A stretch of 10,919 nt of DNA from Phycisphaerae bacterium (GTDB taxonomy: Bacteria; Planctomycetota; Phycisphaerae; SM23-33; FEN-1343), in the NCBI GenBank assembly GCA_041687295.1, contig JAWLCG010000153.1:1-10919 (forward strand). Reading direction: 5' to 3'. Made by a program: the position numbers and the translations under genes. The notes beneath the pieces are model-generated. The model was not told where the DNA came from. It saw nothing but the letters and a program-made list of their open reading frames with translations, and did no database searches. This document shows, piece by piece, positions 1,435-10,919 of this stretch; position 1 is the stretch's first letter; each line of letters opens with the position of its first letter.

Positions 1435-1664
1435 GGGGTCTCTCTGCCGGCTCCGCCGGCGGCGGCGCCCGCGGGGGCGGGCGGGTGTGACGAATTCGAA
1501 CGCAGCATCCTACCGCAGCCGGCCCAGCGGGTCAATTCGATCCGTCCTCTGCCGGCCAGCCCCGCCGGGCCTAGAATCCCATAGGCCCCGAACGCCGGAC
1601 CGGGGGACAGCGGATGCCTCCGCCCGCCCCGCCCGCGCCGCCGTCGGGCCAGGAGTGTGAAGTC

Positions 1665-2072
1665 ATGCGCAGCATCCGGTACATCCTCAGCGGCAAGCCC
1701 AGCCGCCTCGACGACTGCATCGACTACGCCGACCATCACCCCGTGCAGCGGATCGAGCTGACGCTGCAGACGCCCGAGCAGGTCACCGAGATCTGGACGG
1801 CCCGTTGGCTGCAGGGGCGGTTCACGTGGTTCTTCGAGGGCGGCGCGGTCGCCTGCGAGCGCGCCTTCGGCGGCTGTTTCCAGCACGAACCGTCCGCCCG
1901 GCAGCTCACCAGCGTCCATAACGCCAACGCCCGGCTCCTCCGCGAGCTCGACGCCATCCGCGACCGCCTCGGCGACGTCCCCATCGATGGCGCCGACCGC
2001 CGCTTCGACGAGTCAGCGGTCTACCAGCCCCAGACCGCCCAATTCGACGCCTGGACCCCCGACCAGTTGTAG
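1665..2072 (+). CDS. hypothetical protein (about 135 aa; alternative upstream start at 1614)
   Basis: ORF 1614-2072 in the track. The internal ATG at 1665 is preceded by aggagtg (SD-like) at proper spacing, and the upstream part (MPPPAPPAPPSGQECEV) is low-complexity. Codon usage matches neighbours (GC3-rich). No family recognised by eye. Confidence 0.5.
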   Translation: MRSIRYILSGKPSRLDDCIDYADHHPVQRIELTLQTPEQVTEIWTARWLQGRFTWFFEGGAVACERAFGGCFQHEPSARQLTSVHNANARLLRELDAIRDRLGDVPIDGADRRFDESAVYQPQTAQFDAWTPDQL

Positions 2073-2154
2073 CCCGTAGGGCACGTAGGTTCGTGAGCGC
2101 CAGCGAGCGGTTCTGCGTGCCGCGGCGACGCCGAGCGGTTCTGCAGCCTCGGCC

Positions 2155-2185
2155 TTGACATCGGCGGCACCCTCGCTGATATATC
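2155..2185 (+). promoter_or_regulatory. sigma70-type promoter: -35 TTGACA (2155-2160), 17-bp spacer, -10 GATATA/TATATC (2178-2185), overlapped by the perfect 12-bp palindrome CTGATATATCAG (2176-2187)
   Basis: Read directly: ttgaca tcggcggcaccctcgct gatata. The -10 sits in a conspicuously AT-rich patch of an otherwise ~70% GC region, about 75 nt upstream of the sialidase ATG (2263). Two 13-bp direct repeats cgagcggttctgc (2104-2116 and 2132-2144) lie just upstream. Confidence 0.45.
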
Positions 2186-2262
2186 AGTCCATTCCTTGCC
2201 GGTCCGCCTCCCCTCGGCTCGTTCGCCGGCGGGGGCGTGCGGGCAAACGAGAGGACTTCGCC

Positions 2263-3405
2263 ATGACCGCCGACGGTGCCTTGTTCACGACGAGCGACAT
2301 CTTCCAGGCCGGCCAGGACGGCTACCACGTCTGCCGCGTGCCCGGGCTGCTGGTGACGGCGGCCGGGACGGTGCTGGCCACCACCGAGGCCCGCCGGGGC
2401 CACGGCGGTGACTGGGACGCCAACGACATCCTGCTCCGCCGCAGCCCCGACGGCGGGCAGACGTGGGAGCCGGCGTGGCCTGTGGCGGCCGCCGCGGACT
2501 TCGGCCCCGGGCCGATGGACAACTTCGTGATGATCCGCGACGAGTCCGACGGGGCCGTCCATGCCCTGGTCTGCCACAACTATGCCCGCGTGTTCTACCT
2601 CCGCAGCGACGACGACGGGCAGACCTTCAGCGCCCCGCGCGACGTGACGGCCGCCTTCGAGGCCTTTCGCGCCGACTACCCCTGGCGGGTCGTCGCCGTC
2701 GGGCCCGGCCACGCCATCCAGGTCCGCGCCACGGGCCGACTGGTGGTGCCCGTCTGGATGAGCGACGGCACGGGCACCGAGTTCGGCCACGGCAAGCTGG
2801 GGCACCGGCCCAGCGTCGTCAGCACCGTCTACAGCGACGATCACGGCCAGAGCTGGCACCGCGGCGACCTCGTCGTCACTACCGATGGCCGGGTGATCAA
2901 CCCCAGCGAGACCCTCGCCGTCGAGCTGGCCGACGGAAGCGTCCTGCTGAACATCCGTAGCGAGTCGCCCGAGCACCGCCGGCTGATCTCCGTCAGCCCC
3001 GACGGCGCGACCGGCTGGTCCCAGGCCCGCTTCGACGACGCCCTGCTCGAGCCGGTCTGCATGGGCGGCCTGCTGCGCCTGAGCTGGCCCGAGCAGGGCC
3101 CGGGGCGCGTCATCTTCACCAACCCCGACACCCTCGAGCAGACCATGGTCCGCCCCGGCGTGGTCAACTGCGACCGCAAGAACCTCACAGTGCAGCTGAG
3201 CTACGACGATTGCCGCACCTGGCCGGTCAAGAAGGTCATCGAGCCGGGCCCCAGCGGCTACTCCGACCTCGGCGTGCTGCCCGATGGCACGATCCTGTGC
3301 ATCTACGAGTGCGGGCAGGTCGGCGGAAGGATGTTCCAGGACCGCGCCATCCGCCTGGCCCGCTTCAACCTCCAGTGGGTCACCGACGGGCGCGACGCCC
3401 TGTAG
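2263..3405 (+). CDS. exo-alpha-sialidase / BNR-repeat glycoside hydrolase (GH33-like)
   Basis: Four Asp-box (S-x-D-x-G-x-T-W) motifs: SPDGGQTW (nt 2443-2466), RSDDDGQTF, YSDDHGQSW and SPDGATGW. An N-terminal RIP/RVP motif (CRVPGL) is typical of sialidases. Start chosen at the ATG at 2263, preceded by gagagga SD. The track ORF starts at 2155 but that extension overlaps the promoter. No obvious signal peptide. Confidence 0.85.
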   Translation: MTADGALFTTSDIFQAGQDGYHVCRVPGLLVTAAGTVLATTEARRGHGGDWDANDILLRRSPDGGQTWEPAWPVAAAADFGPGPMDNFVMIRDESDGAVHALVCHNYARVFYLRSDDDGQTFSAPRDVTAAFEAFRADYPWRVVAVGPGHAIQVRATGRLVVPVWMSDGTGTEFGHGKLGHRPSVVSTVYSDDHGQSWHRGDLVVTTDGRVINPSETLAVELADGSVLLNIRSESPEHRRLISVSPDGATGWSQARFDDALLEPVCMGGLLRLSWPEQGPGRVIFTNPDTLEQTMVRPGVVNCDRKNLTVQLSYDDCRTWPVKKVIEPGPSGYSDLGVLPDGTILCIYECGQVGGRMFQDRAIRLARFNLQWVTDGRDAL

Positions 3406-3426
3406 AACCTCACCCGAAGGAACGCC

Positions 3427-4527
3427 ATGAACACGCTGGAACGTTTCCGGGCCGCCTTCGCCTTCGGGAAGCTCGATCGCCTGCCGATCCACACCTTCGG
3501 CGGATGGGACGAGACCTACGCCCGCTGGCGCACCGAGGGCCTGCCGGCCGACTGGGGACAGAAGAACTTCTTCGGCGAGGACCCCACGGCCTCCACCGGC
3601 GTGCACCTGGGGACCAACGGCTTCAGCCCGTTCTTCCCGCGATGGACGCCCGAGTTGCTCCAGGAGGACGACACCTACACCGTCATCCGCGACGAGCACG
3701 GGCGGGTCCTCCGCCGGCGCAAGGACGTCGTCAGCGCCTCCATCGCCGAGTACCTCGAGTTCCCCGTCCGCGGCCGGGCCGACTGGCAGCGCGTGAAGCA
3801 GCGGATGGACCCGGCCATTGAGGTCCGCTACGAGAAGCTCGCCGCCTCGGCCGACTGGTATGCCCAGCATGGCGAGGACCGCCCGGTGATCCAGGCCCTC
3901 TCCGGCACGTTCCGCGTGCTGTGGCACCTCATGGGCGACGAGGGGATGTACCTGGCCCTGTACGACGAGCCGGAGATGATCCACGACATCATGCGCACCT
4001 GGCTGCACATGAACGTCACGGCCATCGACCGCATCGCCGCCCGCATGCCCATCCACGTGCTGAACATCATGGAGGACATGTCGGGTAACACGGGCATGCT
4101 GATCTCGCCGGCGATGTTCCGCGAATTCATGATGCCCTACTACCAGCAGCTCATCCAGCACGTGCGCAGCCATACCGATGTGTTCGGCGTCTGGGTCGAC
4201 AGCGACGGCGACGTATCGGCCCTGATCCCGCTGCTGCTGGAGTGCGGCGTGCAGGGAATGTTCCCGTTCGAGGTGCAGGCGCACATGGACGTGGTGGCCC
4301 TGCGCCGCCAGTACGGCCAGCAGCTCGTGATCCGCGGCGGCATTGACAAGCGGGTCCTGCCCCGGGGCCGGGACGCCATCGACCGAGAGCTCGACCGCGT
4401 GCTGCCGATCTTCGCCCAGACCGGCGGCTACTTCATCTGCCTCGACCACCAGGCCCCGCCCGACGTGCCGCTGGAGAACTACCTCTACTTCCTCGAAAAG
4501 GCCCGCACCTATACACCTTGTCCGTAG
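3427..4527 (+). CDS. uroporphyrinogen decarboxylase (URO-D)-like family protein, function unknown
   Basis: 366 aa. The N-terminus LERFRAAFAFGKLDRLPIH resembles the HemE N-terminus (ERFxxALxGExxDRxPVW). The C-terminus GGYFICLDHQAPPDVPLENYLYFLE resembles the URO-D-family GGYILNLGHGIxPxTPxEN block. Good SD (gaagga) 7 nt upstream and a 21-bp gap after the sialidase suggest co-transcription. The stop TAG (4525-4527) lies inside the first REP-like repeat. Confidence 0.7.
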   Translation: MNTLERFRAAFAFGKLDRLPIHTFGGWDETYARWRTEGLPADWGQKNFFGEDPTASTGVHLGTNGFSPFFPRWTPELLQEDDTYTVIRDEHGRVLRRRKDVVSASIAEYLEFPVRGRADWQRVKQRMDPAIEVRYEKLAASADWYAQHGEDRPVIQALSGTFRVLWHLMGDEGMYLALYDEPEMIHDIMRTWLHMNVTAIDRIAARMPIHVLNIMEDMSGNTGMLISPAMFREFMMPYYQQLIQHVRSHTDVFGVWVDSDGDVSALIPLLLECGVQGMFPFEVQAHMDVVALRRQYGQQLVIRGGIDKRVLPRGRDAIDRELDRVLPIFAQTGGYFICLDHQAPPDVPLENYLYFLEKARTYTPCP

Positions 4528-4566
4528 GGCGGGCACGGCCCGCCGCGCTGGCGCCCGGCGCCACTC
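4522..4566. repeat. REP-like element, inverted-orientation copy
   Basis: ccgtagggcgggcacggcccgccgc is the exact reverse complement of gcggcgggccgtgcccgccctacgg found in the downstream direct copies. It is followed by gctggcgcccggcgcc, the counterpart of ggcgccgggcgccatcg. Confidence 0.65.
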
Positions 4567-4578
4567 AGCTCATTCAGG

Positions 4579-4641
4579 GACGCCTGTCCCGGGGGCTCAT
4601 GCGCCCGGCGCCATCGGCGGCGGGCCATGCCCGCCCTACGG
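4579..4641. repeat. REP-like 63-bp unit, direct copy 1
   Basis: gacgcctgtcccgggggctcatgcgcccggcgccatcggcggcgggccatgcccgccctacgg. It contains the palindromes gcgccNggcgc and ggcgggc-cat-gcccgcc. Confidence 0.75.
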
Positions 4642-4649
4642 ACTTTGCG

Positions 4650-4712
4650 GACGCCTGTCCCGGGAGCTCATGCGCCGGGCGCCATCGGCGGCGGGCCGTG
4701 CCCGCCCTACGG
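4650..4712. repeat. REP-like 63-bp unit, direct copy 2
   Basis: gacgcctgtcccgggagctcatgcgccgggcgccatcggcggcgggccgtgcccgccctacgg. It sits 71 bp after copy 1 and differs from it at 3 positions, all in loop or centre positions of the palindromes. Confidence 0.75.
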
Positions 4713-4965
4713 GCTGCTCCCAATGCCTCGGCCCGGTGGGGGTTCTGACGTGTCGCAGAAACTCTGATTTGGGACCTCCAATAGTTGTTGCAAATCTCCG
4801 ATGGCGGTGTAGGCTTAGGGATGAAGACTCCGAAGCTGGGCCGGCCCCCGCGGTGGGACGCGGGAACGGGCCGAAGCCCGCCAAGCGATCAGAGGGTCGC
4901 ACGTCGCCCCTCGTCGCCGGTGATCCCGGTGGCTGCGGCCCCGGGAGCCTTGAAAGGAGCATGCC

Positions 4966-5664
4966 ATGGGGATTCTTGCCCGTCTTCATCGTGTCACGGT
5001 CGGGGGGATCGAGGCCTTCCTCAAGCGGTTCGAGGACCCCGAGGTCATCCTGCCCCAGCTCATTCGCGAGATGGAAGCGCAGCTGCGCTCGGCGACCGAG
5101 GCCGAGGCCAGCGTCGCCGCCAGCGTCAAGCGGGCCGAGCGGGACCTCGAGCAGGCCCGCCAGCGCGTCACCACGCTGGGCCGAGGGGCCGAGCTGGCCC
5201 TGTCCGAGGGCCAGGAACAGACCGCCCGCGACGCCCTCAGCGCCCAAGTCGATGCCGAGCGGGCCGCCGAGCGGGCCCAGCAGAACCTCGACCGCACCCG
5301 CCAGACGCTGGAGCGTGCCACCGACGCGCGGATGCAGGTCCACCAGCAGCTGCAGGACCTGCGGAGCCGCAAGGACGAGATCCTCGCCCGCGCCCGCGTG
5401 GCCAAGGCCCAGAAGAAGGTCAGCCAGAGCGTCGACGGCGCCGTCGGCTCGACCGACAGCATTCTCGACGCGGTCGCCCGCCTCGAGCACGGCGTGGCCG
5501 AGACCGAAAGCGAGCTGGAGATCCGCAGCGAGATCAACGGCGAGCCGACCGCCTCACTGGAGCAACGGCTGATCGAGCTGGAGCGCAACAGCGAGGTCGA
5601 GCGTCGCTTGGCCGCCCTGCGGAGCCCCGGCCCGGCCGAGCCGACCGAGCCGACGCAGGCCTGA
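4966..5664 (+). CDS. pspA: PspA/IM30 family protein (phage-shock protein A / Vipp1-like, ESCRT-III superfamily)
   Basis: 232 aa. The N-terminus MGILARLHRVTVGGIEAFLKRFEDPEVILPQLIREMEAQL aligns closely with E. coli PspA [40 protein letters not shown]. The rest is a charged E/R/A/Q-rich helical hairpin/coiled coil. Strong SD aaggag sits 6 nt upstream of the ATG. Confidence 0.9.
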   Translation: MGILARLHRVTVGGIEAFLKRFEDPEVILPQLIREMEAQLRSATEAEASVAASVKRAERDLEQARQRVTTLGRGAELALSEGQEQTARDALSAQVDAERAAERAQQNLDRTRQTLERATDARMQVHQQLQDLRSRKDEILARARVAKAQKKVSQSVDGAVGSTDSILDAVARLEHGVAETESELEIRSEINGEPTASLEQRLIELERNSEVERRLAALRSPGPAEPTEPTQA

Positions 5665-5677
5665 CCCGAGTCACCCT

Positions 5678-5706
5678 CGGCGGCGGGATCGGGAGACCCG
5701 CCGCTG
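5678..5706 (+). promoter_or_regulatory. GC-rich hairpin between the two pspA paralogs (stem cggcggg / cccgccg, 9-nt loop), without a U-tract
   Basis: Read directly: the 7-bp perfect arms cggcggg (5681-5687) and cccgccg (5697-5703) extend to about 10 bp with a G-U pair. It sits 14 nt after the pspA1 stop, inside an unusually long (120-nt) spacer in an otherwise tightly coupled operon. The perfect palindrome gtgcgcac lies about 35 nt further on. Confidence 0.3.
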
Positions 5707-5784
5707 CAGCGCCCGGTGAGCCCGCGAGGACCCGTTGTGTGCGCACGGGCCCCGCGGCCGCCGGCGGAACCAAGGGGATCCGCC

Positions 5785-6480
5785 ATGAGCATCCTCGAAC
5801 GCATCCAACGCATCGCCCGGGCGAACCTCAACTGGCTGCTGGACCGGGCCGACCCGCCCGAGCAGCAGTTGGCCGAGCACATCGCCGAGCTGCAGTCCGC
5901 CCTGGCCGAGGGCCGACAGTGCGCCGCCAACTACGGCGCGACCGTCAAGCGGATGACCCGCCAGGCCGACGAGCTCGGCCAGCGCATCGCCGCCCTGCAG
6001 GCCCGGGCCGAGGCCGCCCTGGCCGCCGGCGACGAGCCCGCCGCCCGGGCCGCCCTGGGCGAGAAGCTCCAGTCATCCGAACGGCTGGCCGGACTGGAGC
6101 CGGGCCTGGCCCAGGGCCGGGCGAACTACGAACAGCTCAAGGACAACCTCGCTGCGCTGGGCGACCAGCTCTCGGCCGCCCGGTTGCGGCTGGAGGAGCT
6201 GCGGGCGCGTCAGCGGGCCGCCGAGGCCCACCGCGCGTTCGCCCAGCGGCTCGACGGGGCAGGCGCACCGGGCGCCGACGCGGACGCCTTCGACCGGCTG
6301 GAGGACGGCGTCCTGCAGGCCGAGGCCGAGGTCGAGGCCCGCGAGGAGATCCGCGCCGCCTCGATGGGCGAGGCCGACCTGGACGCGCGGAGCCGCCAGT
6401 GGCAGGTCGAGGCCGAGCTGGCGGCCCTCAAGCAGCGGATCGATCGGCCCAAGGAGTCCGACCATGGAACTGCTCCGTGA
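5785..6480 (+). CDS. PspA/IM30 family protein, second divergent paralog
   Basis: 231 aa from the internal ATG at 5785 (SD aagggga upstream); the track ORF starts at 5716. The N-terminus MSILERIQRIARANLNWLLDRADPPEQQLAEHIAELQSAL has the same architecture as PspA helix-0/helix-1, and the remainder is an Ala/Arg/Glu-rich coiled coil. It ends with a 17-nt overlap (ATGGAACTGCTCCGTGA) into the next gene. Confidence 0.8.
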   Translation: MSILERIQRIARANLNWLLDRADPPEQQLAEHIAELQSALAEGRQCAANYGATVKRMTRQADELGQRIAALQARAEAALAAGDEPAARAALGEKLQSSERLAGLEPGLAQGRANYEQLKDNLAALGDQLSAARLRLEELRARQRAAEAHRAFAQRLDGAGAPGADADAFDRLEDGVLQAEAEVEAREEIRAASMGEADLDARSRQWQVEAELAALKQRIDRPKESDHGTAP

Positions 6481-7102
6481 GGCCCTGTCGCCCTGGAACG
6501 TCCTGTTCACCGCCCTTCTGGCGGCGCTGGCGGGCTACTGGGTGCTGGTGATTCTGGGCGCCCTGAACGTCGAGGCCATCGACGTCGACGCCGGCGACGC
6601 CGATGCGGACCTGGGCGCCGACGGCGAGGCGGCCGGCGGCCCGTTGCGGGCGCTGCTGGCCTGGCTGTTCATCGGCGAGGTGCCGGTGATGGTGCTGGCG
6701 AGCATCTGGGTGCTGAGCCTCTGGACGCTGGGCGTGCTGGGCCAGCACTACTTCAACCCCACCCGGGCGATCGTGCCGGGCCTGGGCGTGCTGGCCGGCA
6801 GCCTGTTCGTCAGCCTGCTGGTGGTGCGTGTGGCGGCCCGGCCCCTGCGGCGGGCGTACGCCCTGCTGAACAAGGACTACAACAACCCCGGCCAGGTGGT
6901 CGGGCGAATCTGCGTGGTGACGACCTCGACCGTCTCCGAGCGCCTGGGCCAGGCCCAGGTGACGACGGCGGGGGCGCCGATCCTGCTGAACGTGGTGGCC
7001 GAGGCCGGCCAGGTCCTCCGCAAGGGGGACGAGGCGGTCGTCGTGACCTGGGATGAAGGCAAGGGCGCCTACATCATCGCGCCCGTGGATTTGGAGGCAT
7101 AA
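6464..7102 (+). CDS. NfeD/YqiJ-like membrane protein (TM N-terminal half plus C-terminal OB-fold), the usual partner of SPFH/flotillin proteins
   Basis: 212 aa. Hydrophobic segments VLFTALLAALAGYWVLVILGAL, VMVLASIWVLSLWTLGVL and GLGVLAGSLFVSLLVV. The C-terminal GQVVGRICVVTTSTVSERLGQAQVTTAGAPILLNVVAEAGQVLRKGDEAVVVTWDEGKGAYIIAPV matches the NfeD short-form OB-fold pattern (G-x-G-x-v ... G-x-V-x-V ... y-x-V). SD aaggag 7 nt upstream. The stop lies 3 nt before the flotillin start. Confidence 0.75.
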   Translation: MELLREALSPWNVLFTALLAALAGYWVLVILGALNVEAIDVDAGDADADLGADGEAAGGPLRALLAWLFIGEVPVMVLASIWVLSLWTLGVLGQHYFNPTRAIVPGLGVLAGSLFVSLLVVRVAARPLRRAYALLNKDYNNPGQVVGRICVVTTSTVSERLGQAQVTTAGAPILLNVVAEAGQVLRKGDEAVVVTWDEGKGAYIIAPVDLEA

Positions 7103-7105
7103 GCC

Positions 7106-9121
7106 ATGCTTGCTGCATTTGCCGAACAGACCTTCGCCGTCGTGGTGGCCCTGGCCGTCCTGTTCGGGATCGGCATCCTCGCGATGGTCGTCAAGTGGTA
7201 CCACAAGGTCTCGCAGGGCCAGGCCCTCATCCGCAACGGCGCCGGCGGCACGCGGGTGAGCTTCTCGGGCATGTTCGTCGTGCCGATCCTGCACAAGGCC
7301 GAGTACATGGACATCTCGGTCAAGCGCGTCGAGATCGACCGCGGCGGCGCCCAGGGGCTCATCTGCAAAGACAACCTGCGGGCCGACATCAAGGTCGCCT
7401 TCTTCGTCCGCGTCAACAACACCGTCGAGGACGTGATGAAGGTCGCCCAGGCCCTGGGCTGCGTGCGGGCCAGCAGCGAGTCGGCCCTGTACGAGCTGTT
7501 CGACGCCAAGTTCAGCGAAGCCCTCAAGACCATCGGCAAGCGGTTCGACTTCGCCGAACTCTACACCAGCCGGGTGGCGTTCAAGGAGGAGATCCTCGAG
7601 GTCATCGGCACCGACCTCAACGGCTACGTGCTCGAAGACGCCGCCATCGACTACCTCGAGCAGACCGACAGGAAGCTGCTCAACCCCGACAACATCCTCG
7701 ACGCCGAGGGCATCAAGAAGATCACCGTCCTGACGGCCGAGCAGTTCGAGTTCGCCAACAGCCGGGAACGCGAACGCGACAAGACCATCACTCGCCAGAA
7801 CGTCGAGGCCAAGGAGACGATCCTCGAGCTCAACCGCCAGCTCGCCGAGGCCGAGGCCAAGCAGCATCGCGAGATCGCCACCATCCAGGCCCGCGAGGAG
7901 GCCGAGGCCAAGCGCGTCCAGGCCGTCGAGCGCGAGAAGGCCGAGAAGGCCCGCATCGCCGCTGACGAGGAGATCGCCGTCGCCGAGGAGAACCGCCTGC
8001 GGCAGATCGTGGTCGCCGCCAAGAACAAGGAGCGCACCGAGGCCGTCGAGAACGAACGCGTCAGCCGAGACCGCGACCTCGAGGCCACCGAGCGCGAGCG
8101 GCAGGTCCGCCTGGCCGAGGTGACCCGCGACAAGGCCGTCGAGACCGAACGCAAGGACCTGCAGACGGTCATCCGCGAGCGGGTGATGGTCGAGAAGAGC
8201 GTCGTGCAGGAGGAGGAGCGGATCAAGGACACCCGCGACTTCGCCGGCGCCGACCGCCAGAAGCGCGTCGCCATCACGCAGGCCGAGCAGGACGCCGAGC
8301 GGGCACTGGTCAAGGACATCAAGGCCGCCGAGGCCTCCAAGCGGGCCGCCGAGCTCTACGCCGACCAGCAGCTCATCGAGGCCGAGGCCAACGAGAAGGC
8401 CGCCCAGCGCAACGCCGCCGCCAAGGTCACCCTCGCCGAGGCCAACGTCCAGGAGCAGGCCGTTCCCGGCCTGGCCGAGACGACCGTCTTGAAGGCCAAG
8501 GCCGACGCCACCGAGAAGCAGGGCGCCGCCGAGGCCAAGGTCGCCGAGATGCGCTTCCACGCCGACGCCGAGGGCATCCGCGAGAAGGCCGACGCCATGA
8601 AGCTCTTCGACGGCGTGGGCCGAGAGCACGAAGAGTTCAAGCTCCGCCTCGACAAGGACAAGCAGATCGAGCTGACCGCCCTGGACATCCAGCAGCAGAT
8701 CGCCCGCGAGCAGGCCACGCTCATCGCCGCCGCCCTCAAGAGCGCCCGCATCGACATCGTCGGCGGGGAGAACGGCTTCTTCGAGCGGCTGGTGCAGTCG
8801 ATCACCGCCGGCAAGGCCGTCGACCGCATGATCACCAGCTCCGAGGTGCTCAGCGACCTGCGGCACACCTTCCTCGACGGCGACGGCGAGCAGACGGCCC
8901 AGCGGATCCGCGAGTTCGTCGCCCAGTTCGGCGTCAGCAGCGAGGACGTGCGGAACCTGACGGTCTCGGCCCTGATGATGAAGCTCATCGGCCTGGCCGA
9001 CGAGACCGGCAAGGGCCCGCTGCAGCAGATGCTCGGCCAGCTGGAGAAGATGGGCCTGGGCAACCGGATGGCCCACGAGCTGATCGGCCCCGGGGCCGGG
9101 CGCATGACCTCGCGGTCGTAG
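7106..9121 (+). CDS. flotillin-like SPFH/band-7 domain protein (YqiK/FloT-like) with an extended EA-rich coiled coil
   Basis: 671 aa. N-terminal TM helix FAVVVALAVLFGIGILAMVVKW, then an SPFH domain (ALIRNGAGGTRVSFSGMFVVPILHKAEYMDISVKRVEI...ICKDNLRADIKVAFFVRV) and a long flotillin-type Glu/Ala repeat region (AEAEAKQHREIATIQAREEAEAKRVQAVEREKAEKARIAADEE...). SD ggagg upstream. Confidence 0.9.
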   Translation: MLAAFAEQTFAVVVALAVLFGIGILAMVVKWYHKVSQGQALIRNGAGGTRVSFSGMFVVPILHKAEYMDISVKRVEIDRGGAQGLICKDNLRADIKVAFFVRVNNTVEDVMKVAQALGCVRASSESALYELFDAKFSEALKTIGKRFDFAELYTSRVAFKEEILEVIGTDLNGYVLEDAAIDYLEQTDRKLLNPDNILDAEGIKKITVLTAEQFEFANSRERERDKTITRQNVEAKETILELNRQLAEAEAKQHREIATIQAREEAEAKRVQAVEREKAEKARIAADEEIAVAEENRLRQIVVAAKNKERTEAVENERVSRDRDLEATERERQVRLAEVTRDKAVETERKDLQTVIRERVMVEKSVVQEEERIKDTRDFAGADRQKRVAITQAEQDAERALVKDIKAAEASKRAAELYADQQLIEAEANEKAAQRNAAAKVTLAEANVQEQAVPGLAETTVLKAKADATEKQGAAEAKVAEMRFHADAEGIREKADAMKLFDGVGREHEEFKLRLDKDKQIELTALDIQQQIAREQATLIAAALKSARIDIVGGENGFFERLVQSITAGKAVDRMITSSEVLSDLRHTFLDGDGEQTAQRIREFVAQFGVSSEDVRNLTVSALMMKLIGLADETGKGPLQQMLGQLEKMGLGNRMAHELIGPGAGRMTSRS

Positions 9122-9153
9122 ACACCGATGTACCAGTGCGGAGGGCAGTGTTG

Positions 9154-10919
9154 ATGGCGGACACGCCGGTCCAGGCCGAGTCGGCCCCTGCCGACGCCCC
9201 GCTCGAGGGCGGGACCTACGAGATCCTGCGCAACCGCCTGGCCAGCCACGGCCAGGAGCTGCGCGAACGGCTCGAGCAGCTCAACGTCGCCCGCAAGGAC
9301 GTCTTCGGCTCGCTCGACAGCCAGCTCGTCTCGACCGAGCGGATCAGCACCGAGAACAACTGCGTGCCGCGCGACATCGCGCCGGTCGGCGAGACGATCC
9401 TGTTCGGCTACAACGTCTTCATCGGCCTGCGGGCGACGACCACGCCGGCCGACGTCTTCTCGGCCTACCGCTGGCAGGACGCCGCGCTGAGCCCCTGCCC
9501 GCTCGAGCTGATCCACGACGAGCGCTTCGAGGCCGACTTCGCCAACCTCTACCGCTACTACCGCCACACCACCTTCGCCCGCTTCGCGCGGCGGGGGCCA
9601 CACCTGTTCATGGTCTTCCGCGTCGGACAGGGCGCCGACGACATCAAGACCTTCAAGTGGCTAATCCGCGACGGCACGCTGAGCTACCTGGACAACCGCA
9701 GCGACCACGAGCTGGTCTACCCGCCCCAGCACGGCTTCGAGTGGCAGCGGGCGACGCACGACATGCACCGCCCGGGCCCCTGCCCGCACATCTCAATCGA
9801 GGACCGCGTCTTCGTCGAGACCCTCGGCGGCGACCTGACGATCAAGGTCGAGGACAACACCGCCAGCGGCCAGGGCATCTTCTCCGAGCCCGTCGAGAAC
9901 CCCGACCAGACCCTCGACGACGCCGAGGTCCTCTACGCCCTCGTCGGCGACCTGGTGCTGCTGCGCATCCGGCCCTACCAGGAGAAGGCGTTCCGCCACA
10001 TCGTCTACAACGCCAAGATCCGCCAGGCCGTCCGCATCGACTCGATCCAGGAGGCGTGCGTCCTGCTGCCCGAGGGCCACGGGCTGATCTTCCCCCGCGG
10101 CTACTACCTCCAGTCGGGCCAGCACAAGCAGTTCGACCAGGCCATCGAGGGCATGACCTACGAGGCCTGCGTCAGCTCGCCCAACGGCGAGGACTCGCTC
10201 TACTGCTTCCACAACCGCCTGACGGGCGAGTACGTGCTGCTGGCGTACAACCTGATCGCCCAGCGCGTGGCCGTGCCGATCCTGTGCCACGGCTTTTCGC
10301 TCTTCGAGGACGGCACGCTGCTGTACTTCCGCGCGTCGGACGAGCCGCAGAAGCACCACGCCATCCAGGTGTGGCGCACGCCCTTCACCGGGCCCGACTT
10401 CCTGCGGCCCGCCCGGCAGGACAGCTACCTCTACAAGATCGGCAACCGCGACATCGTCCGCTGCATGGCCGAGTGCACCGAGCTGCTCAACCTGCTGGGC
10501 CGCGACGAGTCGTACGCCAACCTCTACCTCGACCTCACCCGCAAGGCCCAGGCCCTGCGCGACGCGTGGTTCTGGCTGGGCCGCGAGGAGACCTTCAACC
10601 TCGCCGAGCCGCTCGACCAGATCCGCCAGGCCGCCGCCAGCGCGGTCGAGGAGTACGAGAAGGTCACCCGCGCCCGCCAGGCCTCGGCCGAGCAGATTGG
10701 CCGCGTCGCCGGGCAGGTGCAGGAGCTGGTCGGCTCGATCGACTACTACCACCTCGACGACATCGGCGCGTTCGTGAAGCTGCTGGCGGGCATCCGCGCG
10801 GGCCGGGGGGCCGTCGTGGGCCTGCGCGATCTGCGCTACGCCGACCCCGCCCGCATCGACCCGCTGGAGGCCCAGCTCGCCGAGCATGGCCAGAAGCTCT
10901 CGCAGCTGTGCGTGGAGTT
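9154..10919 (+). CDS. large conserved-looking hypothetical protein, 3'-truncated by the window (at least 588 aa), co-operonic with flotillin
   Basis: Not in the ORF track because no stop is reached. Translated by eye from the ATG at 9154 (SD ggaggg 7 nt upstream, 32 nt after the flotillin stop): MADTPVQAESAPADAPLEGGTYEILRNRLASHGQELRERLEQLNVARKDVFGSLDSQLVSTERIS...HGQKLSQLCVE. The frame stays open for 1766 nt with GC3-rich codon usage identical to its neighbours. No Walker A, TM segment or other known motif is recognisable in the visible part. Confidence 0.65.
   Translation, partial: MADTPVQAESAPADAPLEGGTYEILRNRLASHGQELRERLEQLNVARKDVFGSLDSQLVSTERISTENNCVPRDIAPVGETILFGYNVFIGLRATTTPADVFSAYRWQDAALSPCPLELIHDERFEADFANLYRYYRHTTFARFARRGPHLFMVFRVGQGADDIKTFKWLIRDGTLSYLDNRSDHELVYPPQHGFEWQRATHDMHRPGPCPHISIEDRVFVETLGGDLTIKVEDNTASGQGIFSEPVENPDQTLDDAEVLYALVGDLVLLRIRPYQEKAFRHIVYNAKIRQAVRIDSIQEACVLLPEGHGLIFPRGYYLQSGQHKQFDQAIEGMTYEACVSSPNGEDSLYCFHNRLTGEYVLLAYNLIAQRVAVPILCHGFSLFEDGTLLYFRASDEPQKHHAIQVWRTPFTGPDFLRPARQDSYLYKIGNRDIVRCMAECTELLNLLGRDESYANLYLDLTRKAQALRDAWFWLGREETFNLAEPLDQIRQAAASAVEEYEKVTRARQASAEQIGRVAGQVQELVGSIDYYHLDDIGAFVKLLAGIRAGRGAVVGLRDLRYADPARIDPLEAQLAEHGQKLSQLCVE

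Follow-up and report, generated by a model that had tools for sequence, protein, structure and literature searches.

What kind of system is encoded where genes for two PspA/IM30 proteins, a short NfeD protein and a flotillin are packed on one strand together with a very large gene, and would their products work together? This question is raised by contig JAWLCG010000153.1 of a Phycisphaerae bacterium (assembly GCA_041687295.1), which was analysed here over its whole length of 10,919 bp (G+C content about 70%) and is called the window below. Our answer is that positions 4836-10919 hold the front of a six-gene operon, in which an ancient trio of genes for a YqiJ-type membrane protein, a YqiK-type flotillin and a giant AAA+ ATPase was joined, in one clade, by added PspA paralogs and a structured leader RNA, all of them proposed to work jointly. 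Taken as a whole, we hold this reading to be reasonably probable.

The features of the locus are listed in Table 1. An earlier note on this DNA had described five same-strand genes with one overlap and two very short gaps, and this layout was recovered exactly. Four plus-strand open reading frames (ORFs) are followed by a fifth frame that stays open to the contig end; the two pspA genes are 120 nt apart, pspA2 overlaps the yqiJ-type gene by 17 nt (6464-6480), and gaps of 3 nt (7103-7105) and 32 nt (9122-9153) precede the flotillin and ATPase genes, respectively. The same products (232, 231, 212 and 671 aa) were given by an independent gene caller in a public protein collection, and a Shine-Dalgarno-like purine run lies 6-12 nt 5' of every start of the five genes. 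Translational coupling would fit both the overlap of pspA2 with yqiJ and the narrow spacing of the genes. Inside the cluster no terminator-like sites were found on the plus strand, by a scan that is uninformative at 70% G+C. Since the window is the whole contig, the fifth gene is cut by the assembly and not by biology. Very long ORFs (588-882 aa) also overlap real genes antisense or out of frame, at 6428-9076 (minus), 1906-4536 (minus) and 4785-6551 (plus); they were read as high-GC artefacts at this G+C content of about 70%, those on the minus strand under the cluster also because the family matches sit on the plus-strand products.

Table 1. Positions and main properties of the features described in the window
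Feature	Position	Strand	Description
Palindrome copies	84-108; 4522-4546; 4617-4641; 4688-4712	-; +; -; -	Intergenic, just past gene ends
Direct repeat	4578-4644 / 4649-4715		67 nt
Structured 5' leader RNA	4836-4950	+	About 115 nt, four helices, directly 5' of pspA1
Leader helices	P1 4838-4879; P2 4885-4917; P3 4924-4946	+	P1 encloses hairpin P1a
Shine-Dalgarno AGGAG of pspA1	4954-4958	+	7 nt before ATG, 8 nt after P3; invariant in the leader alignment
pspA1	4966-5664	+	PspA/IM30 (ESCRT-III-fold family), 232 aa, no transmembrane segment
GC-rich hairpin	5680-5704	+	Directly 3' of the pspA1 stop, no T-run
pspA2	5785-6480	+	Second PspA/IM30 paralog, 231 aa; stop overlaps yqiJ start by 17 nt
yqiJ-type gene	6464-7102	+	Short NfeD-like membrane protein, 212 aa, three hydrophobic segments, C-terminal soluble domain
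YqiK-type flotillin gene	7106-9121	+	671 aa: N-terminal transmembrane segment, SPFH/Band-7 (residues ~35-185), long Ala/Glu-rich coiled coil, C-terminal region
Giant AAA+ ATPase gene, 5' part	9154-10919	+	1,766 nt (588 codons): N-terminal helix, beta-propeller, helical/coiled-coil part

The first two genes had been taken for PspA/IM30 paralogs, and full-length Pfam matches bear this out. Against PF04012 (cut-off 33.9 bits), PspA1 scored 116.7 bits (E 1.5e-33, profile positions 1-216 of 220) and PspA2 scored 108.7 bits (E 4.3e-31, full length), and the PDB matches of both were Vipp1/PspA chains (E 8e-19 and 1e-22, respectively). The two proteins share 32% identity (BLASTP E 6e-12). Neither reached the equivalog level of PspA proper (NCBIfam TIGR02977 / PRK10698; 93.8 and 91.3 bits versus a cut-off of 242.95) or of LiaH (64 and 41 bits versus 380), and by these scores PspA1 and PspA2 are classed as family members and not as orthologs of Escherichia coli PspA or Bacillus subtilis LiaH.

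The NfeD-flotillin pair proposed in the earlier note was likewise recognized, as a YqiJ-type and a YqiK-type protein. Gene 3 matched Pfam YqiJ_N (PF21001; E 1.9e-7, 31.7 bits, cut-off 23) and E. coli YqiJ (BLASTP E 2e-5), carries transmembrane-like segments at residues 11-39, 60-94 and 101-128, and aligns by residues 143-195 to the YqiJ_OB region (139-198) of the E. coli protein; the Pfam models YqiJ_OB and NfeD gave no match to it even at E<=10. Gene 4, with an N-terminal hydrophobic segment at residues 1-33, had been placed in the SPFH family. Pfam (Band_7 and Flot PF15975 included) gave no match even at E<=10, which, read to the letter, speaks against that placement, and PDB sequences and NCBIfam returned nothing or nearly nothing; profile-profile comparison settled the matter in its favour. 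With hhalign the protein aligned to E. coli YqiK, which is Band_7 plus Flot in Pfam, at 99.9% probability (E 4e-33, 392 columns), and by residues 14-183 to a 190-aa paralog encoded in the related locus L001, whose Band_7 domain is verified by Pfam (E 1.8e-38, 41% identity; the L-numbers used here are labels of related loci from genomes and metagenome contigs). This comparison identifies gene 4 as a divergent flotillin of the YqiK type with an SPFH domain. The alignment ends at YqiK residue 411, just within its Flot domain (406-530). A score of 20 bits was obtained against the FloT equivalog (NCBIfam NF058507, cut-off 700), which places the protein among YqiK-like flotillins and outside the FloT orthologs; its homologs are named 'flotillin family protein' or YqiK in the source annotations. 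The window protein itself is in the protein collection, while an exact search for it in a contig index came back empty. The AlphaFold2 model of the flotillin was unusable (mean predicted local distance difference test, pLDDT, of 54 and below 50 in the SPFH region, from an 18-sequence low-diversity alignment) and was left out of the fold search. Extra stand-alone Band_7 genes were seen in two loci, between yqiJ and the flotillin gene in L001 (9332-9904, 190 aa) and between the flotillin and ATPase genes in L058 (12009-13328, 439 aa).

The large fifth protein, which had been called unknown, proved to be the DUF3686 N-terminus of a giant AAA+ ATPase of ~1,770 aa, matching the full 448-position Pfam profile at E 3e-185 (616 bits). 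All full-length relatives checked are 1,765-1,812 aa long and combine DUF3686, DUF7902 and AAA, and the DUF7902 and AAA+ parts of the window ATPase would accordingly be expected beyond the contig end. The AlphaFold2 model of the encoded fragment (pLDDT 92.4, predicted template modelling score 0.85, 100-sequence alignment) consists of an N-terminal helix, a beta-rich domain (57-408) and a helical region (425-587), and Foldseek found only generic beta-propellers with it. In the AAA+ domain, the motifs SPPGYGKTT, YLDDIQH and MAGNPYTESG do not vary among the 29 species aligned. The nearest solved relatives are the classical AAA proteins p97/CDC48/NSF, in the P-loop region only (PDB, E ~5e-6); the PDB profile search gave no match for the propeller region and one marginal coiled-coil match (E 0.0075) for the middle region. 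No protease domain was found in the ATPase, nor any transmembrane domain in its window-encoded N-terminal part. The annotation name 'DNA repair ATPase', under which such proteins are found, has no support from genomic context.

Conservation of the gene order was analysed in 80 loci, found by scanning a single genome for each GTDB species and annotated by phmmer and a hidden Markov model. The YqiJ gene stood directly 5' of the flotillin gene in 75 of the 77 assessable loci, and the ATPase gene directly 3' of it in 75 of 78, in Planctomycetota, Verrucomicrobiota, Bacteroidota, Acidobacteriota and others. A PspA gene was found 5' of this trio in 3 of 66 assessable loci, plus one locus with a short flank, and 3 of 58 loci had one 3' of the ATPase gene; clustering of the flanking ORFs revealed no other conserved neighbours. 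The conserved core is therefore YqiJ-flotillin-ATPase, PspA being a clade-specific accessory, and it is the ATPase rather than PspA that constantly accompanies the flotillins of this subfamily. Within the clade of the window, the conserved order that the earlier note had suggested looking for in related genomes does recur, with six genes: PspA1-PspA2-YqiJ-flotillin-ATPase-PspA3 is complete in seven loci (L001, L003, L005, L086, L087, L116 and L124), lacks PspA1 in L008 and runs into a contig end in L002, L088, L110, L113 and L127. From this order in the relatives, a third pspA gene is predicted just past the end of the window contig. Four Pirellulales/Planctomycetia loci have an ORF of ~210-270 aa at the place of pspA3, <=~230 nt 3' of the ATPase gene; it shares the strand of that gene in L049 (16018-16824, without a Pfam match), L077 (10318-11079) and L078 (12000-12782) and lies on the opposite strand in L062 (15272-15901, minus).

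The phylogenies tell of repeated recruitment. In the PspA tree, three position-specific clades (PspA1, PspA2 and PspA3) were resolved, the first and third being sisters, and the PspAs of the window fall outside the YjfJ group. PspA2 orthologs (>=46% identity) occur in this operon only, and PspAs at 35% identity stand in unrelated contexts. In the flotillin tree, the PspA loci that bear the leader form one clade. In the Bacteroidales locus L058, Pfam identified CesT_Tir_1, a YjfJ-like PspA, YqiJ, flotillin, the extra Band_7 gene and the ATPase in this order, and its PspA groups with E. coli YjfJ and not with the window paralogs. The two PspA lineages being different, PspA was recruited to the trio at least twice, and such repeated attachment from different lineages argues that the link is functional rather than accidental. 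A leader-less variant was also observed in L088 and L089, where a 166-aa gene with a weak Phage_CP76 match (391-891 and 361-861, respectively) overlaps the start of pspA1; the flotillin of this variant lies outside the leader-bearing clade.

The second addition of the clade is the leader RNA. About 130 nt 5' of pspA1 are conserved across loci of 42-74% G+C, with the invariant blocks ACGAU, CGUCGYCGGU.AU, AGCCU and AGGAG, between which the helices vary yet stay complementary. Among the 92 loci collected, the block pattern matched solely six other loci, all PspA-bearing. In metagenomes it matched 35 sites, 16 of them directly before a PspA1-type gene, and two more of them (L096 and L110) were confirmed by a covariance model; the other 17 sites, which have no PspA downstream and no covariance score, were set aside as chance matches, about as many as had been estimated beforehand. 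The leader is thus represented by 24 sequences, from the window, five loci (L001 6908-7051, L002 6440-6569, L003 984-1116, L005 7576-7705 and L008 171-280) and 18 metagenome loci. It lies directly 5' of pspA1, or of a PspA2-type gene in L008, and the full operon follows wherever enough DNA is present 3' of the motif. Across 1.43 Mb of collected loci, the covariance model found sites only 5' of the first pspA gene, recovered L008, L096 and L110, none of which was in the seed, and gave no matches in 75 loci without PspA.

In the 21 distinct sequences, 90.5% of the cells of the proposed helices are paired, versus 36-54% with slid partners and 78.8% in shuffles; double changes occur in 22 of the 34 pairs and in 104 cells (36 ± 5 in shuffles), and none of 500 shuffles reached the observed values. 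In the covariance-model alignment of the 24 sequences 95.1% of cells are paired, a figure that leans toward structure because that alignment was fitted to the model. Two U-G pairs are invariant in it, so that the structure can form only on the sense strand of the operon. The minimum free energy fold of the window copy reproduces P1/P1a, P2 and P3. Rfam 15 gave nothing at gathering level in the window (best scores for the leader 12-13 bits, thresholds 34-50), and a literature search found no match for the leader. Perfect TTGACA -35 boxes with spacers of 16-17 nt and plausible -10 boxes were found in two AT-richer loci (L005 7507-7534 and L001 6836-6864), in both ~40 nt 5' of the leader motif, which fits a position of the leader within the 5' untranslated region; a sigma-70 promoter scan of the window itself was uninformative at 70% G+C. 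In L005 a strong terminator (7334-7363) precedes the promoter boxes. On the strength of the covariation and the context, we regard the leader as a well-supported orphan cis-regulatory RNA specific to this operon, which would control translation initiation or mRNA stability through a ligand or a protein. Two more specific devices were considered and rejected: the CCUCC strand of P1a is no anti-Shine-Dalgarno sequence, since it varies (CCGUC, CCAUC, CCCGC) against an invariant AGGAG, and a GATCA/TGATC long-range pairing or operator is not kept in L001 and L005.

Given what the genes encode, their operon-like packing and the way in which they are conserved, we infer that the parts may work together as follows. 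In a Phycisphaerae-type clade, the YqiJ-flotillin-ATPase core gained the leader and three PspA paralogs of its own. YqiJ and flotillin would form an SPFH assembly at the inner membrane, on its cytoplasmic side, and the soluble ATPase would dock there through its propeller and coiled coil and spend ATP on remodelling or recycling protein assemblies. In the clade of the window these assemblies would include mixed polymers of the three PspA paralogs that seal or reshape stressed membrane, and the ATPase would take a Vps4-like recycling role for them without Vps4 homology. The leader RNA would set expression after the start of transcription, by binding of a ligand or protein near the ribosome-binding site. 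The interest of such a scheme lies in the fact that PspA is an ESCRT-III-fold membrane remodeller and that a Vps4-like ATPase seems to be absent in bacteria (PMC7619361), which raises the question of how PspA polymers are disassembled in bacteria. The operon offers a concrete, testable candidate for a PspA-AAA+ partnership with a flotillin scaffold, a link that arose at least twice, and its leader could reveal the inducing signal. A bolder version, in which the leader belongs to a novel class of riboswitches or protein-responsive RNAs that senses membrane or envelope stress and switches on a counterpart of ESCRT-III/Vps4, with co-polymers of the three PspAs assembled on flotillin and recycled by the ATPase, is speculative and in our judgement unlikely; if it were true, the co-encoded ATPase would be the 'missing' ATPase of the bacterial ESCRT-III-like polymers.

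Several observations weigh against the joint working of PspA, flotillin and ATPase. PspA is attached in about 5% of the trio loci, the other ~95%, spread across phyla, having no adjacent PspA; and five loci without one (L004, L006, L007, L010 and L069) are nested in the leader-bearing clade of the flotillin tree, which indicates secondary loss or relocation of the PspA genes, several times inside the clade. With the trio mostly free of PspA and PspA lost even within the clade, PspA is unlikely to be the primary substrate of the ATPase, and the SPFH assembly or its clients are the more probable main target. Neither an MIT domain nor similarity specific to Vps4 was found in the ATPase (Pfam, PDB), and its Walker B motif is an invariant Asp-Asp (YLDDIQH) instead of Asp-Glu in 29 of 29 species (residues ~1340-1346 of the product of L001 12104-17431), so that hydrolysis may be slow, or regulated or regulatory. 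Both the AAA+ part and pspA3 are absent from the window contig and would be supplied by analogy with the relatives. Pseudomonas aeruginosa SPFH mutants, including that of PaFlo3 of the bac cluster discussed below, have slight phenotypes only (PMC13086221).

The same observations feed the main rival, in which the ATPase acts solely on the flotillin/YqiJ assembly or on client membrane proteins, as an SPFH-plus-AAA+ quality-control system like HflK/C-FtsH without the protease, and the PspAs are co-expressed protectors rather than substrates, guarding the membrane from leakage caused by ATPase activity or by the same stress. The PspA-free trio of most species and the losses within the clade speak for it, and cup-like SPFH oligomers are listed among the activators of PspA/LiaH in a review (PMC7619361). 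It accounts less readily for three position-conserved PspA paralogs that flank the trio on both sides, for the overlap of pspA2 with yqiJ, for PspA2 orthologs that occur nowhere else, for two independent recruitments of PspA, and for an ATPase with neither protease nor transmembrane domain; we rate it as somewhat unlikely. A looser association, with the PspA genes and the trio as independent stress genes that share a promoter, a regulon in one locus without a joint machine, would suit the modular make-up of the loci (the extra Band_7 genes of L001 and L058, the missing PspA1 of L008 and the variants without any PspA), but it leaves the overlap, the gene order kept on either side of the trio, the convergent recruitment and the exclusive context of the paralogs without a reason, and is in our view very improbable. 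That the locus might be an anti-phage or inter-bacterial conflict system, built from membrane proteins and an AAA+ NTPase, is suggested by the large NTPase with its propeller, the variable neighbourhoods and the weak phage-family match of the small gene abutting pspA1 in L088/L089; since PADLOC gave coiled-coil noise only, no nuclease or toxin domain was found and the flanks have no conserved neighbour beyond the trio, this idea can be given hardly any weight. The six-gene operon with jointly working products remains the reading that we prefer.

In comparison with known systems, the gene combination is a variant of a published operon class rather than a novel type of system. Operons of PspA, YqiJ/YuaF, Band-7/flotillin and a beta-propeller-AAA+ protein were described by Ravi et al. 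(2024, mSystems, PMC11237479), in a version with CesT/Tir and YjfJ whose archetype is from Dokdonia donghaensis (ANH61663.1), as well as shortened operons without PspA that are more widespread, in agreement with the PspA-less operons found here. The window locus belongs to this class, as its three core genes are identically arranged and a PspA gene stands directly 5' of yqiJ; L058 is a Bacteroidales example of the class. The window type differs in that it has no CesT/Tir (YjfI-like) gene (none was found 5' of pspA1, and 4528-4965 is without an ORF) and no PspA of the YjfJ type, that three PspA paralogs of a different lineage, not one, flank the trio, and that it carries the structured leader, which the covariance model finds in no other collected loci. 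The accessible parts of the comparison papers make no mention of the lack of CesT/Tir, the three paralogs on two sides, the separate PspA lineage or the leader. What the present analysis adds is the identity of the fifth gene, the trio as core, the triple-paralog architecture and the orphan RNA leader. Of the dedicated PspA-flotillin machine that the earlier note had proposed, the conserved synteny stands; PspA turns out to be a clade-specific accessory to the trio, and the kind of operon had already been published. As to regulation, where the note had argued against a transcription-coupled response, the window shows a structured RNA leader dedicated to the operon.

The nearest relative with experiments is the P. 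aeruginosa bacABCDEF operon (PA3732-; PMC10948618, PMC2587700, PMC13086221), the proteobacterial CesT/Tir version, which encodes a YjfI-like protein, PspA, a short NfeD protein, an SPFH protein (PaFlo3) and two more genes. It appears to be of the Ravi operon type, and BacE is probably a DUF3686 ATPase, to judge from the description by Ravi et al. and from the comparison made by the bac authors themselves. The operon is co-transcribed according to reverse transcription PCR (PMC10948618) and affects biofilm formation and rhamnolipids; its PspA, BacB, rises on osmotic shock, and a sigma-54 site has been proposed, whereas the window lacks a sigma-54 match of this kind. In an eLife paper on Arc, PA3729 figures just as a background protein.

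The linkage of PspA and SPFH proteins is not novel either. In B. subtilis, pspA-ydjGHI (samGHI) encodes PspA with an SPFH protein, as here, and the accessible part of the work on it (PMC8581546) reports experimentally that PspA depends on the SPFH protein for its link to the membrane; YdjI, as that SPFH protein is called, and its partners YdjG/H are different, and the operon as named has neither YqiJ nor the AAA+ ATPase. Gene pairs of the type seen here are also found in E. coli (yqiJK) and B. subtilis (yuaF-floT), each encoding a short NfeD protein with three transmembrane segments followed by a flotillin of transmembrane segment, SPFH domain and coiled coil. No ATPase or PspA gene is adjacent to the E. 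coli yqiJK locus, and the window flotillin is ~120 aa longer than YqiK and goes undetected by the Pfam Band_7/Flot models. Archaeal and eukaryotic ESCRT-III/Vps4 systems, in which several ESCRT-III-fold paralogs and one AAA-type ATPase are encoded together, present a possible functional analogy. The window-type ATPase has about four times the size of Vps4, carries an N-terminal beta-propeller, lacks an MIT domain and resembles classical AAA proteins at the P-loop level only; by this domain make-up it is not a Vps4 family member. With regard to the classical Psp system, no pspB, pspC, pspD, pspE or pspF was found among the genes of the window, as the earlier note had said, so that within the window none of the marks of that system (PspB/PspC, PspF and a sigma-54 promoter) was seen; sigma-54 consensus matches were fewer than expected by chance, in a scan that is uninformative at 70% G+C.

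The spacer between pspA1 and pspA2 is conserved in neither length nor sequence across loci, and the fold of the window spacer is not significant (z -1.3). Hairpins similar to that listed in Table 1 were found 3' of pspA1 in L001, L003 and L005 and not in L002 and L088, and the window hairpin may perhaps be an mRNA-stabilising, partially attenuating or differential-expression element.

The genes 5' of the cluster are unrelated to it and encode a major facilitator superfamily (MFS) transporter, a BNR-repeat sialidase-like protein and a URO-D-like protein. A 152-aa ORF (1614-2072, plus strand) between the MFS and BNR-repeat genes has no Pfam match and, given the high G+C content, is a candidate gene only. 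Four copies of a 25-nt GC-rich palindrome, CCGTAGGGCGGGCACGGCCCGCCGC, are present in the window, against 0 expected by chance. Three of them stand in a stack that separates the URO-D-like gene from the leader, and the element looks like a repeat of the repetitive extragenic palindrome or miniature inverted-repeat transposable element (REP/MITE) type.

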